Shown here: positions 558-62,392 of the stretch, in pieces
How positions within the stretch are numbered: position 1 is the stretch's first letter
How the letters are laid out: every line of letters begins with the position of its first letter
NCBI GenBank assembly: GCA_964016885.1
Contig: OZ024741.1
Location: 52,762,001 to 52,826,000 of the forward strand
Reading direction: 5' to 3'
Source: Eledone cirrhosa
Taxonomy: Eukaryota
DNA: 64,000 bases
Notes under the pieces: model-generated
The model's database searches: none
Seen by the model: the letters and a program-made list of their open reading frames with translations, nothing else
Told to the model about the DNA's origin: nothing
Made by a program: the position numbers and the translations under genes

Positions 558-789
558 TCACCTAGCTGTCGTCTGTTCGATAGCGTAGACGTAATTCACT
601 TCGCGCAGAAGTTTTGTTCCAATTTATTGCGGAAATATTGTAAGTTTAATTTTAATTTTGATACTATTGTGTAGCTTGAACCCCGTCTGAACTGTCAGGC
701 GGTGGGTCAACTCATTTTCGCCCCTCCCAGGGGTGAAAAACCTGTTTAAAAAAAATTTTGTTGCATAAAATTTCAATCGTCTGGGAGAA

Positions 790-2684
790 ATGTTAAATGA
801 AGCTAACGAAAATAGTGGTGGGGGGACAGCGGTAAGAGTTGTAAGCTCGCACGCTTTAGTCGCCCCTTCCTTCCCAACTAACGTCATAGAGAAGGAAAGA
901 AAAAATAAAATAAAAACAGACGAATGTGCGGAGAAAAATGTTGACGAAAACACAAATCTGGACATTGATTCCAACAACAACAAAAATTTGGAAGAATTGC
1001 ATGACAATATTAATACCACAAACAAAGAAACAACAAACACAAAAATAACATTTGAAAACAATAACATCATAACAGAAAGCAAAACAGACGACAAAGTCAA
1101 CACCAATAATATCTCATTTGCACAAACAACAAAAAAATCTTTAACATACATACCTGAAAATATTTCAGATGTGGCACAAAGAATAAAAAACGCCAAACAA
1201 TTCATAACTCAAGGGGAAAATGGAGCCTTGTCGGTAAAAATGTCCCAAGAACTCACCAAAGATATTGTAAGTCGGACGGTCGTTTTCCGCACCATCAACA
1301 ACATCTCAAAAAAGCCGCAACAACCAACACAAGTAGAAATTAAAGCGGTACTTAGAGAAGTATTTAATGAAGCCACTTTCATAAGAAGAGACAGGCTGTA
1401 TGCAAGCCTGGCCATTATTATGAAGAACGAATCGGCGGCGAAAAAATATGCTTTGTCGCCGATTCATTCGACACATTTTACCTTTTATCCATCTTATATG
1501 GGTAAAAGAACTCAGCGCATATGGCTGGATGCGATGATGCCAGATATGGACTACTGCTGGCTCATAGCTGGCTTCATTGATCCAGCGAATGACAACGTAA
1601 TTTCCATTGGGAAAACCACAGGCAATGCGTTCAGTGGAACAGGTATAGAACTTGTAGTGCAAATGAAGCCTGAACGCATTGCCCAAATACCCGACAGAAT
1701 CCTATTAGAGGGCCACGGGTATATAAACATTAGCGTGGAGGGGAGAAGGCCGTCCTGTCATATCTGTGCAGGCAGAAGGCACCTGAAGGCGGCTTGTCCA
1801 CAACTCAACAAGAAGAAAACCCTGCTACCAACACCAGCTCCACCACCACCACAACAGATAAACAAACAACAAAACTCAGTCCCACCCAACCCGTCCCTCA
1901 GTAAAACTACACCACCACCACAGAACATTACCCCAAAACAAAACACAGTCCCACCCAACCCCTCACTCAATAAAACAACACAACCACCGCAGCCACAACA
2001 CACAACACAGTCTAACATAGTGACATCCATCTCCCCCACAAAGAAAACTAACACGGAAACACTACCAGCAAACATACCTCTTCCCTCCAACACTGAATAT
2101 AACCCAACGAATTCGGAGGAAGAAACGGAGTCCTTCAGACAGATTAAAAGGAAAAAAAGAAAACATGTGCAAAACACACAAGGCCAAACAGCCCCTACCC
2201 AAATGTCAACACAATCCAACAAAACACAGAACACCCCTCCAGCAACAAACAAAACCAAACCTGCCACTCCCCTCTTCGAAACACTCACACCATCCGAAAA
2301 GAGACATTACACTATACTTACACAAACAGAAACAATAATAAATTAAATGAACTCATAAACAATAACCCTTCGGTACAAACCGAAGGGGTAAACTTTGTTT
2401 TTTCAGAAAACAACCCACAATTAAAATTAATAAAGGTCTCAATGAACCTCTACCAAAAACTAAAAAAGGATTTTAAGGAGGACGTAGGACCGCCCTCTGT
2501 TAAACCCATAAACCGCGTCCTCCTAAAAAGCTTCCCCTCCCCCCTTCCCCTCCCCAACACAACTCCAATCACCCCAACCCCACCAAACACTGACGACCCC
2601 ACACCACCACAAGACACCCCTTCACCCAACACCACCGACCCCATGGAAGTCGTGCGACCCGAACCCCGGGAAGCAGAAAGGTAG
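790..2684 (+). pseudogene. LINE ORF1 (gag-like nucleic-acid-binding protein), frameshifted near 2340
   Basis: ORF 790-2346 has CHICAGRRHLKAAC (CX2CX4HX4C) and a Pro/Thr/Gln-rich tail; reading appears to continue in another frame to the stop at 2684, just before ORF2. Confidence 0.75.
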
Positions 2685-2717
2685 GTCTCTACACTCTCCT
2701 TTGGCTTTGCCGCCCAC

Positions 2718-5700
2718 ATGGATGTGTTAAGAGTAGGATGTTTGAATGCACGTGGCCTGGGCTCAACTTGGAAACAAGCAAAGCTTCTAAATGACCTCAG
2801 GTCACGTGGTATAAATGTAATGGTTATCTGTGAGACTCGGATCAGCGTCGTGCGGCAGCTGGCCCCTACCTTCGATGACTTTGGGGTGCACGCATCTCTC
2901 TGTCAACCTGGAGGTGGGGGTGGGGTGGTCGTACTGCTGGAAAAACACCTGGGTCTCGCCGTACAGGTTGTTCACTCGGACCCGGAAGGTCCTTTGTTGG
3001 TGCTAGACGTTGGCAGTAGTGGAGGTGCGGCTTTGAGACTGGTAGTCGTCTACTCTCCTTTCAGAGCTGAACGACCCGACTTCTTCCAGCATCTGGAGAC
3101 TTTTCTGGGAACGTCGCGTTCCCTGCTTCTAGCGGGGGACTGGAATGACATCCTAGATGCACGTTGGGATTATGCAGGAGCATGTCCTAATAGAGGGGCG
3201 TGTAACAGCTTCAAGGGGTTACTTGACCGTTTTAACTTGGTCGATAGATATCGACTAGATTTTCCAACTGTGCCAACCTGGACTTGGACGAACCACAGTG
3301 GTCAATCTAGATCGTACTTAGATAGATTCTCAGTTAGAAGTAAGGATAGGGACATATTAAGCTGTCCAGAAATGCTCACGGTTGGCTATACAGATCACAA
3401 ATTAGTGACCTGCGTAGTCAACCTCGAGAGAACACATAGACAGGGTCCCGGTTACGGGAAACTTAATTTGTCTTTACCGGCAAAAGAGGCTTACAGAGAC
3501 CGGATTAGCAGATTAGTTAAGGAGAGGTTGACGGGTGCAATCGTCAACAACCGATGGTGGGCATCTCTCAAAAGAGATTAGAACAGAATCAATAAGTTAT
3601 AGCAAGATGTTAGCTGCCGATAGTAATAGGAACGAGAAAGAATTAACAGGTAAATTAGAAGAGGCAATCAAGAGCGAAGATGTGGCCAGAGTGCTGGCAT
3701 CGAGGACGGCCTTGAGCCAGTTTTTCGATGCAAAGCACGATGGCTGCGTCATTTGAAGTAAAAGACGTGCTCTAGGTAATGAGGGGTCAAAGCCGTTGGC
3801 TGGGCCCGCGTGACAGAAGATATGAGTGGAAATCGATCCACCATCCGGTCTTTGCAAGACGAGGATGGACGGGTGATCCGGGAGCCTAAGCAGATGAGCG
3901 AGGCCTTTCAAAGGCACTTTGCCCGATTGTTCGGGGAGGCGAGGGTCCGGGCGGGGACGTGGATTTCGGTCCATACCTCGACGGCCTGCCGCGTCTCTCA
4001 AGCGAAGAGGCAGAGTCCTGCGAGGGACCAATCTCGGCTGATGAGATCGGGGATGCGCTGAGCCAATGCAGCAGACGCAAATCTCCAGGTCTCGATGGTA
4101 TACCTTACGAACTTTATTTAGCAATGCCGGTCTTCTTCTCCGAACTCCTCGAAGCAGTCTACTGCAATTGGCAGCAGAACGGGATAATTCCTTGTTCTGT
4201 AGCCAAGGGCGTAGTCTCGCTGGTGAGGAAGGACGAGAACAAGGGGGATAGTATAAATAATTTTCGGCCCATAACCCTGCTAAACACAGAGTTAAAGATT
4301 TTGGCCAAGGTGTTAGCAAAGAGGTTGGCGCTTGTCGTGGGTGGCCTGGTGGGAGATGCGCAGACATGTGTTATCCCATCCAGGTCCATTCACGACAACC
4401 TCCACCTCATGCGATACATCATAGAGAGGGTTGGCAACAAACCCGGCTTCGGTGGGGCCCTGATCAACTTGGATCAGTCTAAGGCGTTCGATGGGTCGCT
4501 CCTGTTTTCAGAGGCTGGATCACTGCCTTACATAGCAACCACATCTGTTCTAGGATCAAGGTGAACGGCTACCTTTCGAAGTCATTCGAAATCACGCGAT
4601 CCATTCGAAAGGGGTGCCCTCTCTCCTTCCTTCTGTACGTATTGACTTTCGAGCCTTTACTGAGGAAGTTGGAGTTGTTGCAGGGTATCCCCCTGGAACC
4701 AGGATTGAGCAAAGCGGTGTCGGCCTACGCCGATGACGTAACAGTAATGGTATCGACCGACTCGGAGATCGAGGCGATCGGTACCTTACTGGAGGAATAC
4801 GAAAGGTTGTCAGGAGCGAAACTGAACCGGGAAAAATCCATCGGGCTGCAACTTGGAACGTGGAGAGGCAGACCGATGCCTCCCGACGGTGTCGTCGGAC
4901 ACTGGACGGAGGGCCCGGTGAAGTTGCTTGGGGTCTGGTTTGGACCGGACCTCCAGGTGGAAAAGAACTGGGGCGAGGTTACGAACAAGGTGTTTGAACT
5001 GAGACAGAAATGGGCCAAGTGTAAGCTGTCCCTGAAAGGTCGGGCGGAGGTGGCGAACATTTACATAGCGTCCGTCACCTACTACCACCTGACTGTCGTG
5101 CCTTGCCCTAAGGAAACAATCACCACCATGGAACGCATTCTCTTTCAATTTCTTTGGAAGATGCGCCCTCCTATGGTGAGAAGATCCATCTGCTGCCAAC
5201 AACCTTCCAAAGGAGGGCTGGGGATGCCGTAGTTGATGATGCGTAGGCACGCATTAAGGCTACGGCACCTACAGGTATTCCTCACTGGTCAACCTGTGTG
5301 GGCTCCGTTCGTGAGACGAGCCTTTCCGAGACTCGTCTCGCTCACCGAGCTGCAGTCCTGGGTCAAGCAAAGATCCGGAAAACTGGGCGACTGGCACACT
5401 GAGTGTGCCCAGGCGCTCAGGGCTCTCTGGCAAGCGGACCCGGCCATCGGTGGAGAATCCACCTCATCATTCTATAGAGGGCTGGTGGCTAGCAGGGGCG
5501 ATGACACCCTTGGAGAGTCGCTGGACATGGAAGAGGACGAACTGGCCAGCCTGTTCGGTAGGACTTTCGGCCAGGGACCAATGGACAACTTCCAGAAGTC
5601 ACTGGCCTGGCAGTGCTACCGTGGGGCTCTACCCGTTCGAGAGAGGCTCTACAGACACGGGCGCCCGGGCAGGGATCCCTCGAAAAAGATTTGCCCTAGA

Positions 5701-6108
5701 TGCGTGCGTCACGAAGAAACCGTTGCGCACGCATTGGTGCACTGTCCGGGCGTGGCTGATCTGTGGGGCTAGGCCGAACGACTGCTGTTGCGGGTGGCGC
5801 CGATTCGATTGACCGCCGAGTCCGTGGTAACAATCAAGCCGCCTCCCCTCTTCACAAAGGAAGCAAAGGCGGTTTTTCTGTGCGTAATAGCCATGTTGAA
5901 AGAGGTTGTTTGGTGGACACGATTGAAAGATCTGAGGTCAGGCAACTTCCTCTCTGGCCATAGTCTGGTCTACTTCTTCCGATATCACTTCGGAAGAAGG
6001 ATAAGAATGGAGAGAGAGGTGCTTGGCCACAGGCAGTTTTATGAAAGGTGGGTGATAATAGCGAGAATGGCTCGTGTAAATGGGCCTTCTCTGTATACCA
6101 TCCTGTAG
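2718..6108 (+). pseudogene. LINE ORF2 (APE endonuclease, reverse transcriptase, zinc motif), disrupted
   Basis: Motifs CLNARGL, ICET, GDWN, SYLDRF, TDHK (APE); KSPGLDG, NFRPITLLN, LDQSKAFD, KGCPLS, YADD (RT); CPRC..ETVAHALVHC. Split over ORFs 2718-3581, 3959-4564, 4561-5232, 5233-5772, 5788-6108 by stops and frameshifts, with a probable deletion near 4492. Confidence 0.92.
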
Positions 6109-8822: not shown

Positions 8823-9039
8823 CATATATGAGAAAAATAATGTACGTTTATATATAAAGCAGCTGATTTAAGAAGCATTTAGAACATTTGTAATCGGAAA
8901 TGTATGCGCGCCAAAGCAATTGACCACAATAATAATCAATCATTCTAAAAATAGCTGAGAAAACTTTTACGCCAAATCTATGACCTCCATTATGCCAAAC
9001 CCATAACATCCAAGTAACTGATCCACCGAACTCAGCTGT

Positions 9040-9870
9040 TTCGGATCGCATGAAAATCAATATACTGATTTAATAAGAGTAATGAGAAACGTGTCCCGCA
9101 TGTGCAATCCTAAAGAATTAGAGAGACACACACAACAATTCATTCACCGCTTGCAGTTCTCTGGCTACAATTAGAGAGACAAGATCAGAGTATATAGAGG
9201 AGTCAGGACTAAGTGAGCAAAGATTGTAGAAAATGATGCAAATGGGACTTGCCCCATGTATAGGAGAACATTTTGGAATATAATAGAATAGATTAAGGAA
9301 AAGGCAAATTAAATCAACTCATGCTATGATAGCAATAAATGCCAGAGTGTAATGTTCATCAAGATAACCCTTAGAGGCGAACTAGCTTACAGATTTAGAC
9401 GGGCTCTATACTAGATCAAATTAAATATTAAGACAGTTGAAAGACCAGGTATTCCCATAAAAACACTACTTAGTAAAACGCACCGATTTCAAAGAAATCC
9501 CTGCACTGATAGGAAATGTATAATCTGCAAACTAAGCCAGCAAACTAACTGCAAAACTAGAAACGTAGTATATAGCATAAGGTGTACTATGGAACAGTGT
9601 AGGAATAAGAACAGAACATACATAGGTGAAACAACCCGTAGCATAGGAGAAAGGATAAGTAAACACTAGCGAGAACTCCAAGATGGGAAAAACCCATCAG
9701 TACTCCATCAACATACCAAAATAGAACATAGGAACACACTGGAGAACATAAAAATAAAAATTACATCCACACACAGAAAAGATGCAAATCACTGAGGCGA
9801 CAAACATAACGGAACTCCAACCAACATTAAACAGAAAACATGAGTGAAATAGCACCATCACAACTAGTAA
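9040..9870 (+). pseudogene. Penelope-like RT thumb and GIY-YIG endonuclease fragment
   Basis: Manual translation with stops: RLQFSGY...KTVERPG...CIICK...NCKTRNVVYSIRC..C...TYIGETTRSIGERI..H. Confidence 0.75.
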
Positions 9871-10273
9871 TTAAGGACAAAATGAAGACATACAGACACA
9901 CACAAAAACCAAACTAATAAAGCAAATCAGGTACACACAGATGGAACAAAGAAACAGCCAGTGACAAGTAAATATACACATAAATAAATAAAAAAAAACA
10001 CACACACACACCCGGATATAACGTATGCGCATATATATATATAAATGAAAATTTCGCTCTACATAGCTGAATACAATAAATGTAATCTGAGCTTTTCGAA
10101 TATTAATAATAACATTCGATTCGTATGCAATTATGCAGTTCTGTTCGCATGCCAACACAAGAGCAAGAATGAAGGGTTCATTCTACTGACATGGCTATAA
10201 AATTGAGGCTTGTTTGCATAATTGCAAAAGAATCGAATGTTATTATTAATATTCGAAAAACTCAGATTACATT

Positions 10274-11030
<757 letters not shown>

Positions 11031-14410: not shown

Positions 14411-15640
14411 CACAGCGTTGTGCATAATCTAGAGTCCACCTGCATTTTAGCTGTCATATTATTAGTAACCTAAGCATACACACACAAGCGCGCAAATATC
14501 ATCACACTTGATTTTCCTTTTAAATCATTGTACATATGTCGACCAATCACATTATTTGATGTATTTTCATATATGCAGCACGCCGAGTCAGTATTTTAAT
14601 AGATATTTGAGTATTAACATGACAACCATTTCAAGCGGAAAACATGCACATATCATTCTTCTTCACGAGGAAGGCTATTCTCAGCGCCAAATGTCTGTAC
14701 GATTGGTAGTATCAAAGACTTGTGTTCAAAAACACTAGCCCGTAATACAACAATAGGCACTCTTAACCCAAACAAGCGGTATGGAAGGTCACGTAAGATA
14801 AGTGTTCAAACGGATCACATGATACGCCAACTTGCAGTGTCAAATCCAACTGCTTCCAGCCCATATATCCAAGTTCGACTTCCCCACGACACAAATATAA
14901 CACCATCTGGCAATGCTGTGTTAAGGATTTTAGCCTTCAGGCTTTTAAGCCAGCTGTCAAGCCTCAACTTTCAAATAAAAGCATCAAGGACCATCTGTTA
15001 TTCTGGAACACTTATCGTCGCTGGACTGCTGATCAACGGTGTGATGTAATGTTTAGTGATGAAACATTAATTATACAATTTGCTCATTATAATCACCATA
15101 TAAGAAGACCACCTGGACAGCGTTATAGTTCTCGTTATGTCAAACCAACAGTTAAACATCCACAATCATTAATGGTCTGGGGATCAATAAGCATAATGGG
15201 ACGAGCTGCATTGACAATAATTCCAGCAGTAAAGACTGAAAATACAAACATGTATTTGGAAATCATACGAGAAAAGGTCTCATTATGGATGGGGAGGCGT
15301 GTTAAGATATATCAACAAGATGGTGCTCCGTGCCATAATCAATTTTTTCGAGAATCTGATATTGAAGTGCTGCCACATTGGCCAGGCTCAGGTCCTGATT
15401 GAAAACTGTTGAAAGACAAAGTTACCAAGCTTTATCCCAGATCAATTACTGACTTACAACAAACAATTCTTAGTGTATTGACATAACACATTACTCCTGA
15501 ATATTGTGCTATCTTGGCGGACTCAATGCCTCGCAGAATTGCTGCAGTAATTGCTACTAAAGGCCATCAAATTACTGATTTGGAATGGACAATTTGTAGC
15601 ATCATGCTTTATTTTGTATGTTTGTAATATATACTATTTT
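14411..15640 (+). mobile_element. Tc1/mariner DNA transposon relic (transposase pseudogene about 14619-15578)
   Basis: HTH region EEGYSQRQMS, GRSRKIS, then FSDE, TVKHPQSLMVWG, QQDGAPCH, WPGSGPD, SMPRRIAAVI; TA then a TIR-like start; right TIR not found. Confidence 0.88.
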
Positions 15641-16524: not shown

Positions 16525-16839
<315 letters not shown>

Positions 16840-16840
16840 T

Positions 16841-16987
16841 GAAGGCGTGTGGCTGTGCGGTTAGAGAATTGGATTCGCAATCGTAAGGTTGTGAGTTCGA
16901 TTCATGGACCAGGCGATGCGTTATGTCCTTGAGCAAGACACTTTATTTCACGTTGCTCCTTCTACAAGGAGTTGCGACCGATAGATA
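16841..16987 (+). mobile_element. tRNA-derived SINE family B, 3'-truncated, inverted relative to its neighbour
   Basis: Almost exact reverse complement of 16596-16742. Confidence 0.8.
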
Positions 16988-16989
16988 AT

Positions 16990-17564
16990 TTTTTTACCCT
17001 GCTGTTACCCGTCTATTTCGTTCTTACTGCTTCTTCTTTCTCTGTATCTTTACCCTCTCTAGCAGTCACTCTCTCTGTTAGCCTCTTCCTCACCCTTCAC
17101 TCACTCATTCTCCGTTACTACCTCTCCTCCTCCTCCTTTTTCCCGTTTGACCTGTGCGTAATTCTTTTCTTTCGCACGCTTGGCCAGGCCGGTCGGCATT
17201 TTTTCTCTCTCTCGTCTACGATTTCACAGAACTTATGTTTACCGAATTCACAGACTAGACCCCTTCTTCCTCCCGTTAGACCTGTGCGAAATTCCTTCCT
17301 TGCTCTCATTTCAACCAGGTTTGATGGTCTTTATTCTCTCTCGTTCACGATTTCACAGAATTTAAATTCATAGAAATTTGGGACTTGACTCCTTCTTCCT
17401 AACTTTTCGTTGCTTCACCATTTTTGTTTGTTTGCAGTCGTGTCCCCTTTATTTATGTGTCCCAACGACTTTTTTTAGCCGTTGCTCGCCCCAACCGGAG
17501 GTATATGGTCTTTAAAGCGATGAAATACCAATGATGGTTGGAAGATCACTGATGAAGGACTAAC

Positions 17565-17570
<6 letters not shown>
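16990..17570 (+). repeat. pLTR-like repeat family with a non-canonical CTGANGA motif
   Basis: Related to 41559-42233, 52060-52180 and 53882-54540. Confidence 0.6.
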
Positions 17571-17620
<50 letters not shown>

Positions 17621-17887
17621 TGGATGATGTAGAAACAGGTTTATCAAGGGCCGTAGCAAAGATAGAGGCAGAAGGAGGTAGGTCAAACTAGCCACAGCTA
17701 TTGCTAGCAGCAGTCAGAACGACCAAATTTGTTCTCAACATTAGTGGAGGTAGTAGTAATAGGATATACGTTCCTTCACGCACAAGGCGCCAAGGTACGC
17801 ATATATCCACTCTCATCCCAGGAACAGTTTTGATAGCGCTAGTCTGTGATTTAAATTCAGGAATTTTATATTCTTTGAATGAAAAGA

Positions 17888-17971
17888 ACCTTCTGACGAG
17901 AATCTTTCTTTGCAACGAAGGCCGTATGGTCTCCGTTTTATTTTTGGGATTCGAAACCGATCGGTAAAGGT
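17888..17971 (+). ncRNA. Canonical type I hammerhead ribozyme
   Basis: ACCTT-CTGACGA-GAATCTT..GGGATTC-GAAA-CCGATCGG-TA-AAGGT; palindromic stem III. Confidence 0.88.
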
Positions 17972-18368
17972 AACTATAGTAGGTAGTCAATTTTTTAAAA
18001 TCTATTTTGAAACTTTTTCATTATTTGCTAAACCTTGTTTATATTTGTTCTGGCTCGTTAATTTATTAACCCGCCATTGAACCACACTGGCATCTGGTTG
18101 GACAATACATGCGTACCTTGGCGCCTTGTGCGTGAAGGAACGTATATCCTATTACTACTACCTCCACTAATGTTGAGAACAAATTTGGTCGTTCTGACTG
18201 CTGCTAGCAATAGCTGTGGCTAGTTTGACCTACCTCCTTCTGCCTCTATCTTTGCTACGGCCCTTGATAAACCTGTTTCTACATCATCCACTCTCATCCC
18301 AGGAACAGTTTTGATAGCGCTAGTCTGTGATTTAAATTCAGGAATTTTATATTCTTTGAATGAAAAGA

Positions 18369-18452
18369 AACTTCTGACGAGAATCTTTCTTTGCAACGAA
18401 GGCCGTATGGTCTCCGTTTTATTTTTGGGATTCGAAACCGATCGGTAAAGGT
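18369..18452 (+). ncRNA. Canonical type I hammerhead ribozyme, second tandem copy
   Basis: Copy of 17888-17971, 481 bp downstream, with one stem I change. Confidence 0.85.
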
Positions 18453-18630
18453 AACTATAGTAGGTAAAGTCAATTTTTTAAAATTTATTTTGAAACTTTT
18501 TCATTATTTGCTAAACCTTGTTTATATTTGTTCTGGCTCGTTAATTTATTAACCCGCCATTGAACCACACTGGCATTTGGTTGGACAATACATGCGTACC
18601 TTGGCGTCTTGTGCGTGAAGGAACGTATAT

Positions 18631-18683
<53 letters not shown>

Positions 18684-18687
<4 letters not shown>

Positions 18688-19269
18688 AAGGGTATGGATA
18701 TTTCAACAGGCACTAGGTACCTATAGAAATATGCAAGGTGTTTATAATAGTTGTGATTCGATGGTACTAATTTGAGATACCAGAACAATATAAAAAGAGC
18801 TGAGCAAGCAATTATCAAACAATTCTCTAAATAAATTAAAAAAACGATTTAAATAATCACCTGTTCTATTGCTGTTAGCGACGGTCTCACCAATCCAAAC
18901 ATTAGAAATCCAGAGAATTTCCAATGGAAAGAATTAGATCGTCAGACAGCTTATTTCCATACTATAAGGTTGCTAATCTCACAGTAAGTCAACATTTCGC
19001 TTCCTGCCTAACGCATGCGGCCAGGCCGTTGAAATGACACACACGCAAAATCAGGTCGCAAGTAAGAGCTGTTTATTATAAACTTGTTGATACTGCCACT
19101 AAAACCAACAGCACTATACAACGTTTTGTTCTCTACATAAGGAGAACAATTATAAAAGGGTATGGATATTTCAACAGGCACTAGGTACCTATAGAAATAT
19201 ACAAGGTGTTTATAATAGTTGTGGTTCGATGGTACTCATTTGAGATACCAGAACAATATAAAAAGAGCG
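18684..19269 (-). repeat. 468-bp tandem pLTR-like unit (1.25 copies) with a degenerate HHR at 18871-18950
   Basis: 18684-18800 repeats at 19152-19268; minus strand GCTGT-CTGACGA-TCTAATTC..GGATTGGT-GAGA-CCGTCGC-TA-ACAGC. Confidence 0.65.
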
Positions 19270-20145
19270 GACATTGCTGAGTTTTTGAGTATCAGGTATT
19301 TAGAGGTCATGGGTTTAGCATAGTTTGAGTGGAGAATTTGGGCTCTCTCGTCTATAGTGTTAATCCAGAGTTCCGAGTCTAATACAGGTAGTCTATTGTT
19401 AGGGTGTTTGGAAGGGTAGTCGATAGTTACAGTTATACTCTGGTGTATGGAAATAGCTATCTGCTGGATGCTTTCCATTGTGCTACGTTCTAAATCAAAC
19501 TTGTTAGTGCTCTCTTGTGGGGATGTCCTTATTACTATATTGATGTCGTCTACGTAACGAGAGTACATGATGAGATCTATGGAGCTCTCATCAAGGAGAT
19601 TTTTGAGTCTCCTTTCCCACCATACCATAAAAAGGTTGGCAACATCACCAGCTATGCTGACACCAATGGCTGCTCCCTCATTTTGAGTGTAGATCTTCTC
19701 GTTGAACTTGAATATGTGGCCCTTTAGGGTAGTTTTGATACTAACCCCTATTGCATGTGCGACCATTTTTCTTACCTGATCATTGTTTTGGGGGGTCCGT
19801 ATAGGTTTAGTCCACCCAATCCACCTTCCCATGGGAGTCTTTTTTGCCATTGAGGTTATGGTGGGGGTCTACCTCTTATGGGTCTACTGGGGCATAAACG
19901 TCTAAGGTCATGGCTGTCTAAGGTCATGACAGTGTCGTAGGTAAGTCTAAGTAGGAGGCCCAGTTCGTCTGTGTCGACGTCGCAGAACGCCACCTCACTC
20001 TCAATGATCATCTCTCTCCACACATTTTTCCACAGCAAAATCAATGTTAATGGATGGGTACAGTGAAACCATATCCATACTGCCTATTATGCAGTTGGAT
20101 AGGTTCCTGTTTTTGTTGCACTCACTGATTATGCTGAGGAGGTCC
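19270..20145 (-). pseudogene. Penelope-like reverse transcriptase fragment
   Basis: GSMDMVSLYPSI, QNEGAAIG, YSRYVDD, TIDYPSKHPNNRLPVLD, YAKPM; frameshifted. Confidence 0.85.
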
Positions 20146-20352
20146 TCTGGACTGTCACATACATCAGACAACAACACAACGGTAACATAGACAACATAGA
20201 AGTTAGAATAATATCTAAACATAGAAATGACCCAGCAGATAGGCAAACCAGAGTGGCCAGCGAAATAGAACTTAGACGGCCAAGGCTAAACAGAAAAAAA
20301 TTAATGGAATAACAACAACACCCAAACAAACAACACTGACCTCAGAGATGTA

Positions 20353-20383
<31 letters not shown>

Positions 20384-20981
20384 ATACATACACAAGCACA
20401 ACAACAACAAACACATATAAACACACACTAGTAAACTAAGATAGAATACATTAACCAATACACAGTCAACCAAACAAGAACACACATCAAACAAAACACT
20501 ATACACACACGCAAACGCATGCGCAGAGAAGACAAAAAAACAACAAATAAATAAATAAATAAACAGACTAAATAAAGATGGCGTAGGCATACAATGCAAC
20601 GGGAGGAAGCATAATAGCACCACTGACGATGTTGCAGATGTGCAACGAAATAACTTTGATAGACTATATATAGTCATATATAGTCATTTTAGCCATTATC
20701 AGGCAAAAATTCCTTTAGTCAAAAATACGGTGAAAGCTATTATATATATATATACATATATAAATGTTCGGTGAATCCATACGTATATATATATATGTGT
20801 GCATATATGTATATATATATACATACTACTGTACGTCTGTATACATATATGTATGTACGTGTACATACTTATATTTAAGTAACAGCCTCACTAAGAGTGG
20901 GAAATGAAATTTCGTTTCATTTTTTCCGTTTATATATATATATACATATGTATATATATACATATGTATATATGTATATAC

Positions 20982-24658: not shown

Positions 24659-24706
<48 letters not shown>

Positions 24707-24777
24707 ATATGTATATGTATATGTATATATATACATATATACATATATATATATGTATGTATATATATATATATATG

Positions 24778-24992
24778 GGCGTGTGGCTGAGTGGTTAGAG
24801 AATTGGATTTTCAATCGTGAGGTTGTGAGTTTGATTCCAGACCCGGGCGATGCGTAATGTACTTGAGCAAGACACTTTATTTCACGTTGCTCCTTTTACC
24901 TGGAGTTGCTACCGATAGATAGTATTAGCAATTGGGAAGACCAATGGAAACATTGTTTCCTCGGTCCGATTTGACAAAAGTCGATCGTTTCT
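24778..24992 (+). mobile_element. tRNA-derived SINE, family B
   Basis: Homologous over its length to 16525-16742; in (TA)n. Confidence 0.8.
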
Positions 24993-25090
24993 ATATATAT
25001 ATATATATTTGAACCGATCGTTCCTATATATATATTTGAACCGTTAAGATCTCCTTCCTGCATATTTCAATATTTATAAAGCAAGCTTTG

Positions 25091-34383: not shown

Positions 34384-36742
34384 TTAGCTGTATACTTTAT
34401 GGAATGTTCTGTGGAATTTATGCAAGCAGAGAGAAAACAAGTCAGTGCGTCTATTTATTATAGAATCTAAATTAGATTTAATGGTAAATTTCTCACATAA
34501 ACAGAGATTACATGTCTTGGATAGAGAACCATTCAAGTATGGAGAAGCAGAACAAACCTTCCTCCAAGAGATGTTATAGTTAATATTTTTGTCTTTCAAG
34601 GACCATATGAGTTCTGAGAGTGCCGGGTTGGTTCTTTTAAGTTGGTATTTAAAAGACGAATGATGATTATAAAGACGAGCTTTAAAGGAGGTGGAAGTGG
34701 AGCCAAAATATGTAAAGGAATTGGTGTCAGTTATAACTTTATATTCGTAGATTAAGTCTTTTTCAAGATAATTGTTTCTACGTTAGGCACAAGGCCAGCA
34801 ATTACCCAGTGCATTACTGGTACTTTATTTTATCGACCCCGTAAGGATGAAAGGCAAAGTCAACCTCGGCGGGATTTGAACTCAGATCGTAAAGGGACGT
34901 AACTATGCTGGAAAGCATGGCGTCCGACCCTCTACCAATACTGCCAATCCACCGTTGTTGAGAGGACATTTATTTTTAACAGGGCAATTACAATTGCGAT
35001 TAGAGAAATTAACAGAGTTAACAAGTGACCTAGTGTTATCTATAGAAGGAATTGGATTGGAGAAGTTATTCACGATAGGAATAATAGTTTCTTGATTTAG
35101 AATGGGATTAAGAACATTTAACGAAGTTGCGTTTGACGTTGTATTTGGGTTTGCAGAAATTAGCCTAGAGTTAACAATGACGTCGGGAGTACTATTACTA
35201 TTATTATGATATTCAGTGTTGGAAGGAAGAGATTTAGTATTTAGTATTTTATTGTTGTGTTTAGAGATAATGTTAGAGATGTTGGAGGAGGTCGAATATG
35301 AACATTTTATAGTGTATTTGTTAAATATTTTACTATAGATATGTAAGGGAGGGAAGCACTTATTTAAGGCACTAAGGAATAATTTAGGAATATTATTATT
35401 AATAGAGATGGAGAAAGGAGCATTATACCAGATTATGTTTTTGTATCTAGGTCTTTTATTAAAGTTATTGGAATGATCATGATTAATTATTCTACTGTAA
35501 GATCTTCTAGAATTTGTTTCTTTACTATATTTGATTTTATCAGGATAACCGGTTTTAGAAAGCGCGTTATTATAGTAATTGGCGTTAGCATCAAAGATGT
35601 TTTTATTAGAAGATAGGTTGGATATTCTTTTTCCGATATTACTAACTATAGCATTTTTAATATTAGTGGGGTGGTTAGATTTAAAATTAACATAATTTAG
35701 GTTCTCATTGTTTTTATGGTAAGGGTAATATAGGCCAGTGTCAAGATTAAGAGATACATCCAAGAAATTAGCTAGTTTGATGCTGTTATCAAATTCAATT
35801 TTTAAGTTATGTTGGTTAAAGAGATTACGTGTATTGTTCTTAATAATATTAAGGTTAATTATGTTGCAATTTAAGATAGTAAAGAGTCCATCGTCACGAT
35901 AAATTCCACCGCGAAGTTGAGGAATTATCCGATTAAAAGATGTCAAAATAAAGATACCAATTAAATCTGTCAATTGGGATGAATCGGATGCTCCCATTGT
36001 GATGTCAAAGTTGTTAGAGGTATCAGCTCTGGTCCAATATTCATTGTTGAACTCTAGGATGGTTTTACGTGCGGTGAGAATGATGTGAAGTTCATCTGTG
36101 GTGATGTCCGAATATTTGTAAGCGAAAGATAGAGCATTGTTGAGAAGTGAGGGCGAAATAGAAGAATAGTAGCTGGCAATATCAAATTGAATAATTTTTT
36201 GTTTGTTTTTCTTACTCAATTTGTTGAACCAGCCAATCACTTCAGAAGTACCAAACCATAAATTTAGGTTCAAAGAAGAGCAATTAGAACGAACCTGTGG
36301 GATAATTCTATCCAAGATGGCTTTGCTAACAACCCCAGATCTGATTTAGAGGGGGCGATTAGTCTAACAGGTAGTTCAGTACGAAAGTTGTTTTTGTGAT
36401 CCTTGAGATTTATCCTCGGAGTTCTTGGGGGGAATGGTTCGGTCTTTTTCCGATGCCAAGTTTTGACATAATCTCAGAAGCTTCAAAGTTTATGGATTCT
36501 AAATTATCATGGTTGGTTTTGCGATATTTTTTCCTAAGTTCCTTTAGGATAAGGTTGTTATAGTTATCCTTAGAAATACCATATAAATTATTTGTTTTGT
36601 CAGAGTGGATTAAAACACTTTTTGAGGAATTTAGGTTTGAAATCGTGTTCTTGAGATTTACAAGGTGCTCTTGTCCTCTGTAAGGGTTTCTCTTGAATTT
36701 AAGATTTTTTATAGTGTTAGTTAACTCCTCCTCGAATTGCAC
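34384..36742 (-). pseudogene. Penelope-like RT and GIY-YIG ORF, disrupted
   Basis: ORFs 36410-36742, 34903-36315 and 34384-34599 join once frameshifts and the SINE are removed. Confidence 0.88.
34770..34953 (-). mobile_element. tRNA-derived SINE family A inserted in the Penelope ORF
   Basis: Near-identical to 8630-8822; splits CPLNN from YLEKDLIY; short AACAA duplication. Confidence 0.85.
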
Positions 36743-36862
36743 TAGATTTTTGTTGGAAGGAGAATTTCTTCTAGAATTAAATAAATGATCAAGAAAGTTA
36801 TGTTCCTTGGTATAGAAGTTCCCTTTTAGGCGCTTTATTGTACTACAATAAAACTCACCTCC

Positions 36863-36908
<46 letters not shown>

Positions 36909-36942
36909 GGCGCTTTATTGTACTACAATAAAACTCACCTCC

Positions 36943-42603: not shown

Positions 42604-42926
42604 CATATATATATACATATACAAACATATACATATATATATATACAAACACACATACATACATATACATACACATACATACACACACGTACACAAACAT
42701 GTAACATACACACACACACACACATATATATATATACACACAGAGGGGCACAATTCAAGTACGTTATACAAGTGGAAAAAGCAGATAGGTAAGAGCAGGT
42801 GTGTGTATTTATATGTGTATATATGTGTATATATATTTGTATACGTATATATATATATATATGTATGCGTATATATATATGTATATGTGTTTAGATGTAT
42901 ATATATGTGTATATGTATATATATAC

Positions 42927-44980
42927 TTCGTGCGACGCACGAAGCTACAGGCACATTTCGGCCGAACGCCACCGGCTCCGGACGCCCCAGACCCGTTTCT
43001 CGCCCTGGGCCTACGACCATCTTCTTGGACGCCGGCCCCAGGGCAATTTAGCACCCTGGACGCGTTCGTCGATGCCAGCCGTAGCGCCTTAAATCGTTTC
43101 GACTTCCGCCACCGTTCCAAACGTAATAATATCTCACGGGGCGAACTCCTCGCTCTCCGCTCCCTCCGTAGCCGAGATGACATCGTCATCAAACCGGCGG
43201 ACAAGGGAGGCGCCGTGGTGGTGTGGCGCTCGGACCTCTACACGGCCGAAGCCCTCAGGCAGCTCCGTAACCCCCTCTTCTACCGCCCTCTACCCTCCGA
43301 TCCCACACCCCTCTACCAACAACAAGTTTCCTCCACCATCCAACACCTTGTCTCCTCCTCCCTCCTCCCCCCACCTCATCGTCCGCACCCCCGCACCCCC
43401 ACCATCTACTTCCTCCCCAAACTCCACGAACCCGACAACACCGGCCGCCCCATCGTCTCCGCTTGCAACTGCCCCACTGAACTCATCTCCGCCTTTCTCG
43501 ACTCCATCCTCGCCCCCCTTGTCACCACCCTCCCCGCCCACATCTCCGACACCAACAACGCCCTGCGCCTTTTCGACTCCTTCACCTACCCACCCGGCCC
43601 ACAACCCTTCCTCTTCACCCTACACATCAAGTCCCTCTATACCGTCATCCCCCACGCCGACGGCCTACGCGCCCTCAAACACTACCTCGACCTTCGCCCC
43701 TCCCCCATTCCCTCCACCCCCACCCACCTTCGCCTAGCCGAGTTGGTCCTCACCCTCAATTGTTTCTCCTTCTCGGGTGAGTTTTACCAACAGGTCACGG
43801 GGGTAGCCATGGGTACAAGAATGGGCCCGAACTATGTCAACCTTTTTGTTGGCCGTGTTGAGGCCCAAATCTTTGCCCAGTACACCGGCCCCACGCCCGA
43901 ACTGTACGGTCGTTACATCGACGACTGTATCGGAGCCACGACCCTCACCCGAGAACAGCTCGACTCCTTTCTCTCCTTCTTCTGCTCCTTCCACCCCTCC
44001 CTCCACTTCACCACCTCTATCTCCACCACCCACGTCCACTTCTTAGACATCTCCGTCGCCTTCGACCCCTCCCACCACTCCCTCGTCACCTCCGCCTTCT
44101 TCAAACCCACCGACTCCCACTCTTACCTCGACTTCACCTCTTCCCACCCCACACACACTAAACACTCTATTCCCTATTCCCAACTCCTCAGGATACGCCG
44201 CCTCTGTAGCCGAGATGCTGACTTCGAGTCCCAGGCCCTTTCCCTAGTCAGCCATTTCCTCCGCAGAGGTTACCCCCCCTCTCGTCCACACCGCTCTCAC
44301 CCGCGCCCGTGCTGTCCACCGCTCCACCACCCTCTCCCCACGCCACCGCACACCCATCCACCGTCTCCCCTTCCCCATAACCTACCACCCCTCCACCTTA
44401 CCACTCCACCGCACCATCCGCCGCCTCTTCCGACGCCTCCAGTCCGACCCCTCCACCTCCCACATCTTCCCAACCCCACCACTCCCCTCCTTCAAACGCG
44501 CACGAAATCTCTGCACCCTCCTCGTCCACAGCTCCCTACCCCCCAACCCACGCTCTCCCCCCCGGTTACTTTCCCTGTTCTAGGCCTCGCTGCAACACCT
44601 GTCCCCACATCACCAACACCACCACCTTCCAGGGTCCCAACGGCCACTCTCTCTCTGTCCGGCATGCCTTCCGCTGCACCTCCTCCAACCTAGTCTACGG
44701 ACTTCGCTGCACGGAGTGCAGCGCGACTTACGTCGGACAGACGGGACGTCGCCTGGCGGACCGATTCACTGAGCACCTCCGGGATATTCATCTCAGTGGT
44801 AGTTCCCCCATCGCCCGCCACTTTGGTGCCCCTGGACATTCCGCACGCCATCTCACAGTCTGTGGCCTACTCCAATGCCACGGAACACCCGGCAATCTCC
44901 TCAGAGTTGAACAAAGAACCATCTTCATCTTACAGACCCACACTCCCCCCGGCCTGAACTCCCCACCATTATTCCTTTAG
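42927..44980 (+). pseudogene. Neptune-type RT and GIY-YIG ORF with a few frameshifts
   Basis: IKPADKGGAVV, YFLPKLH, GRPIVS, KSLYT, GVAMGTRMGP, RYIDD, FLDI, KPTDSHSYL, SIPYSQ; shifted frame gives CSRPRCNTC..NLVYGLRCTECSATYVGQTGRRLADRFTEH..PGLN, stop at 44980. Confidence 0.92.
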
Positions 44981-46535: not shown

Positions 46536-47920
46536 AAGATGAATATAAAATGAAAGTGCTTTTTTTTAAAAAAGGAATTTATTAGGTATTGACATATGTT
46601 TCTGTAACAGACGGAATACCTATGTATCGCTGCTTGCGTAATCATATAATGTTAGCATGTATTCGATAGCAAATGTATAATCAGTTGTCACTTCTTCAGA
46701 GATATTGGATAAATTGGAAAAAAATCATAAAAATTGAAGTATTTATATTAGTTGTAATAAAGGAAGAAGATAAGGGATAGTATATGACAGATGGCAATTC
46801 AATTTACTGGTAAACAAGTATATAAAGGGTTTCTAATGAGAATACAATGAGTATATGTTTATTTTATCTAAATCAGAATTTTTGGGAGTGCCTATTTTAA
46901 TCTATACTTGACCAATTGAACAATGGACAGGGCTGGTCGTTTGGTGTAGTAGTATTAATTATAAAGTGTCAATTAAGGAAGAGGGAGATTTTTCACTGCT
47001 ACTGAATAACAACAATGCTGGTAGCCTGCTGGTATATGCATTGGGAATTGAATTAAGAAATCTCATTTTATCTATAGCAGTTTATATTAAATGGTAAAGA
47101 ATAGAAGAGTTGATAGAATTAAGACTAATAGAGAATGTTAATATGTATTTTGACAATCAAACGGAGATGGAGACAGGCGTTCAATCCTGGTAGTGTTTGT
47201 AATATGAAAATGTAGATTTTAAGCGATGGTTACAGTATAACGATCGCTCTATTCTGTTATTTAATAAAATATTTTTCGATTTCATAATACAAAATAATTA
47301 TATATTACACAATTTACAAAATTCCTGTCCGTGGGAATATGGAGGGGCAGCTGCTATTATATACCATTTTTAGGTTACGCAGCTGCCAAGCCTTGTCTGC
47401 GAGTGTTGTTACATAACGCTGGTTTTCATGTTTTATCGAGTAACGATGTCTATAAAGGCGAGATTTGAAGGATGTGGCTGTAGACCCCAGATAGTACCAC
47501 TTCTGGCTATCCGATTCGATAGCACATTTGTATATGATGTTGCGTTCAAGACACTGATTGTTCAACGGACACATTCCTGGTTGGACACAGTTACAGTTAT
47601 AATTTTGCGTTGTTGTATTGGCATGGATGTGTTGATGAGGTTGCTTAGGTAAGGCGGGATGTTGTTTGTTGTTTCGTGATGTTATAGCTGATGTTTTACG
47701 TGTATTGTTATGTGTTGGAAGGCGTTTATACAACCGTTTTGCGTTAAGCTTTTTTATGTTGTTCAATATTAGGGGCGGTTGAATATGAAAGTCGAATATT
47801 CAAGCACTTTTATTTTATATTCATCTTTTCTACAGTTTCTCCGGAATATAATTTATACTCGTTGAGCAAACCTACACGTACGCTGTTCATCTCTAACGTA
47901 AAGATATATTATCACTACAT
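46530..47920 (-). mobile_element. Penelope-like fragment (GIY-YIG N-part) with pLTR and inverted end
   Basis: ORF 47314-47766: CNC..CPLNNQCLERNIIYKC..YYLGSTATSFKSR; 46531-46561 inverted at about 47802-47832; HHR-like fold with long stem II at about 46586-46705 (CTGAAGA-AGTGACA..TGTTACA-GAAA-CATATG-TC). Confidence 0.75.
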
Positions 47921-47973: not shown

Positions 47974-48056
<83 letters not shown>

Positions 48057-48287
48057 TTAGAAACCCACAGATACATGCGGACACACACATATACATGAAT
48101 GCATCCGCACCCAACCGTGAGTTAAGGGTGCCAACGTCACCGATGTTGCTCAATGAATGACTGGGACAGACCAATCCGGTTGAACTAGACTGAACTAGTA
48201 TCAGAGTTAAAAATACATTATGAAGAGAGAAGAAACATTTAGATATAATTAGTAATAAAATGTATCATACCTAAACTGCTCCTAGAT

Positions 48288-48377
48288 TCCTCGACTACGT
48301 AGTTTCGTGGCATAAACAAAAACAATACATCATAAAGATATAGAGTCCTTGCGAGGTCTGCCGACTTATCAAGAGGA
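48288..48377 (-). ncRNA. Type I hammerhead with U3-A8 core (inverted copy)
   Basis: Reverse complement of 48518-48607. Confidence 0.8.
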
Positions 48378-48517
48378 TACCTCATTTTACTAGTCTCAAG
48401 AACGCGTCTACACGACGTGAGAAAGAATCCCAAAAGGCGTGACTATCTCCCCCTCCGCCTTTTGGGATTCTTTCTCGCGTCGTGTAGATGCGTTCTTAAG
48501 ACTAGTAAAATGAGGTA

Positions 48518-48607
48518 TCCTCTTGATAAGTCGGCAGACCTCGCAAGGACTCTATATCTTTATGATGTATTGTTTTTGTTTATGCCACGAAACTACGTAG
48601 TCGAGGA
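48518..48607 (+). ncRNA. Type I hammerhead with U3-A8 core
   Basis: TCCTC-TTGATAA-GTcGGCA..TGCCAC-GAAA-CTACGTAG-TC-GAGGA; predicted cleavage after C48602. Confidence 0.82.
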
Positions 48608-49110
48608 ATCTAGGAGCAGTTTAGGTATGATACATTTTATTACTAATTATATCTAAATGTTTCTTCTCTCTTCATAATGTATTTTTAACTCTGATACTGG
48701 TTCAGTCTAGTTCAACCGGATTGGTCTGTCCCAGTCATTCATTGAGCAACATCGGTGAAGTTGGCACCCTTAACTCACGGTTGGGTGCGGATGCATTCAT
48801 GTATATGTGTGTGTCCGCATGTATCTGTGTGTTTCTAAATATATTGTTAATAACTCCCTCTGGTCGAGCAACCTTTGAAGTGTGGGGACTGCTGAAAAGC
48901 TTCCATTACTCATACTTCTTGTCTCCTTCACCACCTCTTCTACGGCTTCGATATAAATACCCCCTCCGCCTCCGTGGTATTTTCTTCGGGGTTATAAGAG
49001 GCTTAGCTCTGTTTCTCGACCGTTATATCGCGTGACTATCTCCCCCTCCGCCTTTTGGGATTCTTTCTCACGTCGTGTAGACGCGTTCTTGAGACTAGTA
49101 AAATGAGGTA

Positions 49111-49200
49111 TCCTCTTGATAAGTCGGCAGACCTCGCAAGGACTCTATATCTTTATGATGTATTGTTTTTGTTTATGCCACGAAACTACGTAGTCGAGGA
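49111..49200 (+). ncRNA. Type I hammerhead with U3-A8 core (second tandem copy)
   Basis: Same motif 593 bp downstream. Confidence 0.82.
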
Positions 49201-49331
49201 ATCTAGGAGCAGTTTAGGTATGATACATTTTATTACTAATTATATCTAAATTTTTCTTCTCTCTTCATAATGTATATATATATATATGTATATGTGTTTA
49301 GAAGTATATATATGTGTATATGTATATATAT

Positions 49332-53881: not shown

Positions 53882-54542
53882 TGAAAAAGTGAGTCCTTCA
53901 TCAGTGACCCTCCAACCGTCCTAGGCATTTCATCGCTTTAAGGGCCATATACCTCAGGTTGGTGCGAACAACGGCTAAAAAAAGTCGTTGGGACACGTAA
54001 ATAAAGAGAACGTTAGGGTGAACAAACAAAATGGTTTAAGCAACAGAAAGTGAGAAGAAAGAGACAAGTCCCAGATTTCTATGAATATAAACTCGATAAA
54101 ATCGTGAACTAGAGAATAAAGACCATCAGACCTGTCTCTCTCTCTCTCGTCTGTGTCTTCACAGAACTTATGTTTACCGAATTCGCAGACCAGACCCCTT
54201 CTTCTTCCCCCCGTTAGACCTGTGCGAAATTCCTTCCTTGCTCACATTTCAACCAGGTCTGATGGTCTTTATTCTCTAGTTCACGATTTTATCGAGTTTA
54301 TATTCATAGAAATCTGGGACTTGTCTCTTTCTTCTCACTTTCTGTTGCTTAAACCATTTTGTTTGTTCACCCTAACGTTCTCTTTATTTACGTGTCCCAA
54401 CGACTTTTTTTAGCCGTTGTTCGCACCAACCTGAGGTATATGGCCCTTAAAGCGATGAAATGCCTAGGAGGGTTGGAAGGTCACTGATGAAGGACTCACT
54501 TTTTCATATGTAACCCATTTGCAACGCCGCAGCTCCATTATT

Positions 54543-54545
<3 letters not shown>
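53882..54545. repeat. Fold-back copy of the 16990/41559 repeat family
   Basis: 53882-54134 is the reverse complement of about 54254-54507; in (TA)n. Confidence 0.8.
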
Positions 54546-54605
<60 letters not shown>

Positions 54606-60406: not shown

Positions 60407-60803
60407 TCTGAATTTGTTTAGCAAGATTCTTTATCTGAAATCGTGTGTTGAAATATGTATATGAACATATATATATATTCATATACATGGTTAAGAGAGT
60501 GGGACTGGCTTTGTGCAGTGCCTTTGCTCACTATAAAAGTTTCATATATATATATATATATATATATATTTAGAAACACACAGATACATGCGGACACACA
60601 CATATATACATGAATGCATCCGCACCCAACTGCGAGTTAAGGGTGCCAACTTCACCGATGTTGCTCAATGAATGACTGGGACAGACCAATTCAGTTTGAA
60701 CCAGACTGAACCAGTATCAGAGTTAAAAATACATTATGAAGAGAGAAGAAACATTTAGATATAATTAGTAATAAAATGTATCATACCTAAACTGTTCCTA
60801 AAT

Positions 60804-60891
60804 TCCTCGACTACGTAGTTTCGTGGCATAAACAAAAACAATACATCAAAGATATAGAGTCCTTGCGAGGTCTGCCGACTTATCAAGAGGA
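60804..60891 (-). ncRNA. Type I hammerhead with U3-A8 core
   Basis: Same fold as 48518-48607 with a 2-nt shorter loop II. Confidence 0.82.
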
Positions 60892-61394
60892 TACCTCATT
60901 TTACTAGTCTCGAGAACGCGTCTACACGACGTGAGAAAGAATCCCAAAAGGCGGAGGGGGAGACAGTCACGCGATATAACGGTCGAGAAACAGAGCTAAG
61001 CCTCTTATAACCACGAAGAAAATACCACAGAGGCGGAGGGGGTATTCATATCGAGGCCGTAGAAGAGGTAGTGAAGAAGGCGAGAAGTATGAGTAATGGA
61101 AGCTTTCCAGTTGTCCCCACACTTCAAAGATTGCTCGACCAGAGGGAGTTATTAATATATTTAGAAACACACAGATACATGCGGACACACACATATATAC
61201 ATGAATGCATCCGCACCCAACTGCGAGTTAAGGGTGCCAACTTCACCGATGTTGCTCAATGAATGACTGGGACAGACCAATTCAGTTTGAACCAGACTGA
61301 ACCAGTATCAGAGTTAAAAATACATTATGAAGAGAGAAGAAACATTTAGATATAATTAGTAATAAAATGTATCATACCTAAACTGTTCCTAAAT

Positions 61395-61482
61395 TCCTCG
61401 ACTACGTAGTTTCGTGGCATAAACAAAAACAATACATCAAAGATATAGAGTCCTTGCGAGGTCTGCCGACTTATCAAGAGGA
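61395..61482 (-). ncRNA. Type I hammerhead with U3-A8 core (second tandem copy)
   Basis: Same motif 591 bp from the first. Confidence 0.82.
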
Positions 61483-62392
61483 TACCTCATTTTACTAGTC
61501 TCGAGAACGCGTCTACACGACGTGAGAAAGAATCCCAAAAGGCGGAGGGGGAGACAGTCACGCGATATAACGGTCGAGAAACAGAGCTAAGCCTCTTATA
61601 ACCACGAAGAAAATACCACAGAGGCGGAGGGGGTATTCATATCGAGGCCGTAGAAGAGGTAGTGAAGAAGGCGAGAAGTATGAGTAATGGAAGCTTTCCA
61701 GTTGTCCCCACACTTCAAAGATTGCTCGACCAGAGGGAGTTATTAATATATTTAGAAACACACAGATACATGCGGACACACACATATATACATGAATGCA
61801 TCCGCACCCAACTGGTCTTTATGTGTACATATATTAACATTGTCTTTCATCTTTCTGTGCATTCATAACAATATTAAAAAGTTTAACTTTCTTTTCGCTC
61901 GTTCACCTTTTTTTTCTCGAAAGAAGTCGTTTGCGACAAAAACTTTAATTGTCCAAATCACACCCCATGACACAACAGTGCGCCTGTGTTCTACCAAGAA
62001 TTGAGGACCCATAGAAGATAGTAGTTAATATGTTTGATGCAGGATGCCTGAATGGTTTAGAATCTTGCTTCATGATTATGAAGTCCCGGGATCGATCCTA
62101 CTCTATGTCATCGCAGGAGTGTCATTTACCATTGAAATTGCTTAGATAGAAACTGTTTGGAAACCTGTCGGATGGACTGCATCGGTAATTCGAAGGCTAC
62201 CTATTTTGATTACATGTACAACTCATTTCTTTCTCAGCTATGTGTACTGGTGCAACGTGAAATAAATTGTCTTGCTCAAGGACGTAACTTCCCGGAGGAA
62301 ATCAAAATAACGATAACAAGAATGAAACAGGTCTAGTCAGTTTTATACAAGTCATTTCGATATGAAACAAATTTCTACCTTCTCTAGTAATG

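Follow-up and report, generated by a model that had tools for sequence, protein, structure and literature searches.

A 481-nt tandem hammerhead repeat of Eledone cirrhosa is probably a Penelope-mobilised non-LTR retrozyme

We analyzed a 64,000-nt stretch of the Eledone cirrhosa genome (contig OZ024741.1, positions 52,762,001 to 52,826,000; hereafter the window) that contains a tandem repeat with a 481-nt unit. The element is probably a non-autonomous hammerhead repeat mobilised by a Penelope-like element (PLE), that is, a non-LTR retrozyme, copied from a multimeric RNA that was circular or linear. Its ORF-less tandem units, type I hammerhead, low GC content and many copies in sequencing contigs support the retrozyme-type assignment made in an initial annotation of this DNA. 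The features of the element and of its right-hand neighbors are listed in Table 1.

Table 1. The 481-nt element and adjacent features, in positions of the window.
Feature	Position	Strand	Remarks
(TA)n target microsatellite, left	17567–17615	.	TRF, 24.5 copies
5′ inverted arm	17614–17806	-	copies unit positions 301–481 and 1–12; AT shared with the microsatellite
Unit 1	17805–18285	+	481 nt, non-coding, 39% GC
Type I hammerhead 1 (HHR1)	17888–17971	+	stem I of 5 bp, intact core, palindromic stem III
Unit 2, partial	18286–18635	+	350 nt; 3′ end within a TA-rich stretch of the unit
Type I hammerhead 2 (HHR2)	18369–18452	+	intact core; an A-G mismatch weakens stem I
(TA)n target microsatellite, right	18633–18686	.	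TRF; shared with the 3′ end of the neighboring element
468-nt sister repeat, 1.26 units	18683–19271	-	589 nt; homologue of the 481-nt unit, separated from it by the shared (TA)n
Penelope-like RT fragment, putatively Neptune-type	19272–20165	-	abuts the 468-nt repeat without (TA)n
Endonuclease end, AC-rich 3′ UTR and minimal hammerhead-like core of the same PLE clade	20154–20738	+	ends in (TA)n; tblastn match weak (E 0.052)

The layout originally described for this locus, (TA)n followed by an inverted segment, 1.7 tandem units and (TA)n, is borne out by the coordinates, with a tandem part of 831 nt corresponding to 1.73 units of 481 nt. Unit 2 differs from unit 1 by four substitutions and one 2-nt indel over 350 nt (98% identity). 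The arm is the reverse complement of 18105–18297 with one difference in 193 nt, or none in 189 nt once its last bases are assigned to the junction; the difference between arm divergence (0/189) and unit divergence (5/350) is not significant (p 0.17). The arm extends across the head-to-tail junction and has its outer end 12 nt beyond the start of the forward part. At the other extremity, the element has its 3′ end within TA-rich sequence, 188 nt downstream from the cut predicted for the hammerhead. Both flanks consist of (TA)n or AT-rich target sequence, and because any target site duplication is unreadable within (TA)n, none is called for this element.

The two hammerhead cores begin at 17893 and 18374, with the stem III sequence CCGATCGG and a GUA triplet. 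Cleavage is predicted after 17966 in HHR1 and after 18447 in HHR2, which gives exactly the 481-nt spacing proposed initially. A strict hammerhead descriptor (stem I of at least 5 pairs, stem II of at least 7 pairs and a palindromic stem III) returned one match in the window compared to none in 20 shuffled windows. The further claim that each unit carries a canonical hammerhead stands only in part: both cores are intact and have the palindromic stem III, but the stem I of HHR2 is broken, with three contiguous pairs left instead of five, and HHR2 is predicted not to fold. Helix II also departs from the canonical form. The stem II region of HHR1 comprises 53 nt with seven basal pairs, which is unusually long compared to the 4-bp helix II described for canonical metazoan type I hammerheads (PMC4209133).

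Upon local folding of HHR1, stems I and II reached predicted probabilities of 0.5–0.74 and stem III 0.02, and the hammerhead helices of HHR2 were near 0. Within a fold of the whole unit, the HHR1 helices had probabilities of only 0.01–0.18. The stem III palindrome is predicted to be far more stable as a duplex (−18.6 kcal/mol) than as a hairpin (−1.9 kcal/mol), a modeled preference that fits the dimeric hammerheads described in PMC4209133. Folded as a linear or circularised molecule, the monomer is 56–58% paired (z −1.9 linear and −2.5 circular, relative to shuffles), compared to z values of −0.3 to −0.6 for the opposite strand. The predicted failure of HHR2 to fold as a hammerhead, the low HHR1 probabilities within the whole unit and the modest advantage of the monomer over its shuffles all weigh against our preferred explanation. 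With one of its hammerheads weakened, the present copy may be ill suited as a source of new elements.

Searches against Rfam gave no hammerhead at the gathering score in the window and none at E ≤ 10 in 17400–19300; 28 weak Rfam matches to other models at E ≤ 10 were dismissed as AT-repeat artefacts. Neither metagenome nor viral contigs contained a match to a 22-nt hammerhead motif. The element was also said to have no coding capacity, and we saw no sign of any: the longest stop-to-stop frames of the circularised monomer are 74 codons (+) and 92 codons (−), and tblastn with 12 PLE proteins gave no match inside the element at E ≤ 1. A 109-codon stop-to-stop frame runs over the arm junction (17688–18017, −). 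A tRNA gene search returned 0 genes.

Metazoan non-LTR retrozymes have been described as tandem repeats with type I hammerheads (Cervera and de la Pena 2020, PMC7229834). Li, Clavereau and Pollet (2026, bioRxiv 10.64898/2026.07.22.740005; hereafter Li et al.) report retrozymes of 51–972 bp, related to PLE pLTRs, in 23 of 35 animal genomes (our sum of the counts in the paper). The 481-nt units resemble these elements in being tandem and non-coding with one type I hammerhead each, in their GC content of 39% (below 45–50%), in the short palindromic helix III and in their co-occurrence with PLEs. Their length lies within the range of Li et al. and slightly above the 150–450 bp given in PMC7229834. 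The long helix II, the 5′ inversion and the (TA)n flanks, on the other hand, distinguish the element from retrozymes as they are described in the available portions of these sources. Li et al. apply a rule of two consecutive complete hammerheads; here, two cores are present, one with a mismatched stem I, and with 1.73 units the element therefore misses the two-intact-unit rule if HHR2 is inactive. In the same study, cleavage was found in only one of nine predicted retrozyme dimers. A plant LTR retrozyme, which carries a type III hammerhead in its LTRs, was ruled out by the type I topology and the tandem units.

The organization of the locus is also that of a PLE insertion; PLEs characteristically target (TA)n and leave partial tandems that carry an inverted copy at the 5′ end (PMC8557442). 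The element shares with EN+ Neptune-type PLEs the partial tandem, the 5′ inverted copy, the (TA)n target and a 3′ end internal to the unit (PMC8557442, PMC3846280, PMC11167929 and PMC4209133), as well as a hammerhead with a long helix II and a short helix I. Unlike EN+ PLEs, it has no RT or GIY-YIG ORF between its repeats. It also differs from the head-to-head palindromes of Penelope, in that the outer end of its arm lies at the start of the forward part and not at the usual 3′ end. The non-autonomous PLE derivatives of Chlamys (such as MRC1, PMC8557442) provide another parallel, being likewise ORF-less, head-to-tail, multicopy and, as we propose for the 481-nt unit, PLE-made. Unlike this unit, however, those derivatives generally resemble the 3′ end of their autonomous partner, mostly lack canonical hammerheads and occur in green algae.

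The 468-nt repeat across the right (TA)n tract is a relative of the 481-nt unit. Aligned to a doubled 481-nt unit, it matches over its whole length with a score of 133 (100 shuffles: mean 32, maximum 42), and 303 of 526 alignment columns are identical. Its hammerhead (core at 18945) is decayed, with GAGA in place of GAAA and a broken palindrome; its stem I retains all five pairs, three of which are changed on both sides relative to the 481-nt unit. The 3′ end lies at a site homologous to that of the 481-nt element, 193 nt after the cut site. The repeated ends of the 468-nt copy differ at 3 of 115 positions and enclose no ORF. In a tile scan of the window (426 tiles, 95th percentile of scores 43), the highest score outside the element and this neighbor was 53, and no other relative emerged.

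To look beyond this locus, we used contigs assembled from sequencing runs. Thirteen runs from five studies were listed, none of them an RNA run; nine share some words with the unit, and the contigs of four (X1, X4, X5 and X6) were aligned to one unit. This yielded 732 aligned contigs from X1, 29 from X5, four from X4 and one from X6, which, being assembled contigs, give a depth that is not a copy number. Judged from these sequences, the 481-nt unit is a many-copy family with many variants in X1. Of the 85 loose ends of the alignments, we considered 16: four enter TA repeats (at 18044, 18108, 18138 and 18141), and by eye the remaining 12 resemble unit sequence that has diverged. Two ends, at 18044 and near 18147, coincide with sites that rank among the three in the unit that best match TA.

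The head-to-tail joint is present in two of the four aligned runs (X4 and X5), in neither case letter-identical to the locus. In X4, which bears another organism label, a 513-nt contig runs from 17997 to 18277 and on from 17805 to 18026, closing on itself and ending 30 nt past its own start, for a closed cycle of ~483 nt. This contig is possibly a mosaic, with two differences in 17805–18026 (the hammerhead half) compared to 19 in 17997–18277. The X5 joint sits in a diverged subfamily (25 differences in 190 nt). Position 17844 is C in both units of the locus and T in X5, in X4 and in 16193/16262 of the X1 depth; the two copies therefore have a single monomer as their ancestor. Such sharing would result from rolling-circle copying, from a homogenised source array or from a difference between species.

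These joints bear on the idea that the locus arose from a single PLE terminal fragment by local duplication and inversion at the DNA level, or from an assembly artefact. The 98% identity of the units, the identity of arm and partner over 189 nt and microsatellite flanks that are hard to assemble would all suit such an origin. However, the same head-to-tail joint recurs in diverged copies of two other runs and in the 468-nt sister, and units 1 and 2 differ at five events and are thus not an assembly duplication. The independent joints largely refute this origin, and we regard it as very improbable.

Beyond the 468-nt repeat, the RT fragment (read from 20165 to 19272) matches residues 301–598 of the PLE protein P0001 and is broken in the thumb, stopping ~200 residues short of the P0001 end and ahead of the whole endonuclease. 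Its nearest protein is from Octopus vulgaris (70% identity). The following piece at 20154–20738 aligns with a 3′ end of the same clade at 9650–10060 (z 5.8). By eye, a CX4CxxC linker is present in five of six proteins (P0001, P0002, P0006, P0009 and P0010; P0005 ends earlier) and in the PLE copy at 8973–9844 of the window, and Pfam GIY-YIG gave a weak match in two of 12 PLE proteins. Based on the linker and the C-terminal GIY-YIG of the clade, the neighboring RT may be Neptune-type, with Nematis as the alternative.

We weighed whether the 481-nt element is instead the 5′-truncated 3′ end of an autonomous PLE with a short tandem array of pLTR-like units. Consistent with this, the homologous 468-nt repeat immediately follows a PLE RT that has the same orientation, the combination of a long helix II and a short helix I resembles PLE-borne hammerheads (PMC4209133), and retrozymes often match pLTRs; in Xenopus, 24 of 57 families matched transposable elements, nearly all of them PLEs (bioRxiv 10.64898/2026.07.22.740005). 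Against it, the RT is broken mid-thumb at the joint, which is therefore not an intact ORF–pLTR border. The Neptune-type 3′ ends of the window (9780–10290 and 20290–20770) align with neither the 481-nt nor the 468-nt unit (z ≤ 1.0), and the unit is thus not the terminal repeat of this PLE. None of 12 related metagenome PLE loci scored above background against the unit or had a canonical hammerhead by the strict scan. The share of contigs that continue into sequence unlike the unit is 0 in X1, 0.04 in X5 and 0.27 in X4 (four contigs). We found no support for the unit being the pLTR of a full-length PLE in the window, the 12 metagenome loci or the short run contigs, and we consider this explanation unlikely.

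How the 468-nt repeat came to adjoin PLE sequence (18683–20738) can be read in two ways. The RT may have switched templates, leaving the repeat RNA for the mRNA of the helper. The repeat may also have inserted later at the (TA)n edge of the PLE with loss of target sequence, an option that stays serious because (TA)n clustering is common in the window.

Other PLE sequences were seen in this survey. In two metagenome contigs, L001 and L002, long ORFs from the same clade precede short 3′ UTRs that contain minimal hammerhead-like hairpins, and both contigs end in (TA)n. In the window, 8973–10030 (+) is a decayed 3′ part of a PLE of this clade, with thumb, CX4CxxC linker, GIY-YIG and AC-rich 3′ UTR, ending near a TA run. 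A long PLE ORF in two frames at 42789–44980 (+) contains RT, CX4CxxC linker and GIY-YIG; it is ~20% identical to the clade of the neighboring RT and represents a second candidate helper type. Sequences at 34384–36922 (−) and 47314–47799 (−), which had no Pfam match at E ≤ 0.01, are PLE fragments, presumably Naiad-like by their motifs.

For the preferred explanation, a Penelope-mobilised retrozyme, we infer the following cycle. A tandem source would be transcribed, and paired hammerheads, folding as dimers, would cut the RNA into 481-nt monomers that are perhaps circularised. A Penelope-like RT/GIY-YIG protein, for which the Neptune-type family is the best candidate, would nick the (TA)n tract. 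Reverse transcription would be primed internally, at the TA-rich site ~190 nt downstream of the hammerhead, and would proceed across the unit junction to give 1.73 units. The second target end would then prime synthesis of another 190 nt from the adjoining upstream region of this multimeric template, generating the inverted arm. Read as one template, the arm and the forward part together require at least 2.1 units, and we hold a circle and an uncut linear multimer to be about equally probable as its source. The anole PLE likewise initiates internally and cuts both strands at AT-rich sites (PMC11167929). Because the initiation site of that element is not homologous to the DNA it cuts, the TA matches at the 3′ ends perhaps do not reflect base-paired priming.

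In the twin-priming model, the outer end of the inverted piece adjoins the start of the forward piece. The geometry of the 481-nt arm is as this model would predict, with a chance of ~5% that this single insertion would show it otherwise. As in L1 5′ inversions attributed to twin priming (PMC10760644), an inverted 5′ piece is joined to a forward piece by microhomology. Unlike L1, the element belongs to another retroelement class, has (TA)n and not poly(A) ends and would derive from a multimeric template. We note that the L1 model is itself described as awaiting validation (PMC10760644).

Within this cycle, the hammerhead might be a passenger, with an uncut linear read-through transcript of the tandem source serving as template and no monomer circle being made. 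This is a variant of the same non-autonomous element, so that its likelihood overlaps that of our best explanation; we regard it as a real possibility, if a somewhat less than even one. Hammerhead cleavage is dispensable for insertion of the anole PLE in vitro, where PAc hammerhead mutants insert normally and no reads end at the cut site (PMC11167929). Both HHR2 and the hammerhead of the 468-nt sister are impaired, and a copy of more than two units crosses the hammerhead site, as an uncut multimer would allow. By contrast, the compensatory stem I changes between the 481- and 468-nt families and the lower divergence of the hammerhead half in X4 (2 compared to 19 differences, in a possible mosaic) suggest that the fold is under selection. 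The private C at 17844 in both units fits repeated copying of one monomer, and circles have been demonstrated for retrozymes of coral, mussel and axolotl (PMC7229834).

A second tandem family, with units of 591/593 nt, occupies 48050–49275 and 60564–61814 of the window. It has a hammerhead-like motif with a palindromic stem III, but its core reads UUGAUAA instead of CUGANGA, with C3 and G8 both changed. The 593-nt element includes a fold-back palindrome (48050–48845) whose arm ends at the site where the copy at 60564 has its 3′ end, as has been described for Penelope (PMC3846280). The two units at 60564–61814 are identical over 660 nt, which indicates a very young copy. We take this family to be the other candidate meant when the 481-nt element was first called unrelated but identical in architecture. 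We rejected homology between the two (alignment z ≤ 2.0), so the first description is correct for this pair and fails for the adjacent 468-nt repeat. The shared architecture extends to the coarse layout only: the outer end of the 593-nt arm is the preferred 3′ end, whereas that of the 481-nt arm lies 12 nt into the forward part, and the cores differ.

The left neighbor of the element (17000–17566, +) contains internal repeats of ~130 nt, ends at the shared (TA)n in a hammerhead core that is truncated, and is 80% similar to 54139–54589; its homology to the 481-nt unit was not supported (z ≤ 3.0). Further hammerhead-like motifs with intact cores occur at 25099 (+), 51356 (+), 33397 (−), 24068 (−) and 11507 (−), four of the five with a TA-rich short stem III beside microsatellites. 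These motifs are probably the 3′ ends of other PLE families. More generally, the window is rich in microsatellites (140 TRF rows) and holds several retrotransposon fragments. A near full-length LINE in several frames lies at 769–6108 (+), with an ORF1-like frame, an APE endonuclease and an RT (from the ORF list, by eye), and a Tc1/mariner-like transposase remnant at 14618–15402 (+) was likewise recognized by eye. An inverted pair of ~150-nt repeats, which we take to be SINE-like in appearance, flanks (CA)n(TA)n at 16591–16992, with a related copy near 24700–25000.

That such elements form a general system and not a one-off, as first suggested for this locus, is true but not new: the non-LTR retrozyme class and its link to Penelope are already published (PMC7229834; bioRxiv 10.64898/2026.07.22.740005). 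On its own, the 481-nt family adds a probable cephalopod example to a known class. We found no octopus or other cephalopod retrozyme and no retrozyme-PLE chimaera in a literature search over the listings of a mainly open-access collection. The available text of PMC7229834 goes no further than naming PLEs "a strong candidate" for the mobilisation of animal retrozymes, and that of Li et al. relies on co-occurrence and pLTR homology and leaves the mechanism open.

What could matter here is the evidence from junctions: a young many-copy family with PLE-type ends and a sister unit fused to a PLE RT. At its fullest, the locus would record the retrozyme cycle, so far only a hypothesis, in which twin priming accompanied more than two rounds of copying of one monomer circle, and in which the RT copying the sister retrozyme jumped to the mRNA of a Neptune-type helper even though the unit does not come from the terminal repeat of that helper. 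We consider this full account doubtful. If true, it would identify the helper and demonstrate that a PLE is genuinely parasitised in trans by foreign ribozyme RNA. Both the helper question and the question of a circular or linear template become testable by counting junctions in one genome.
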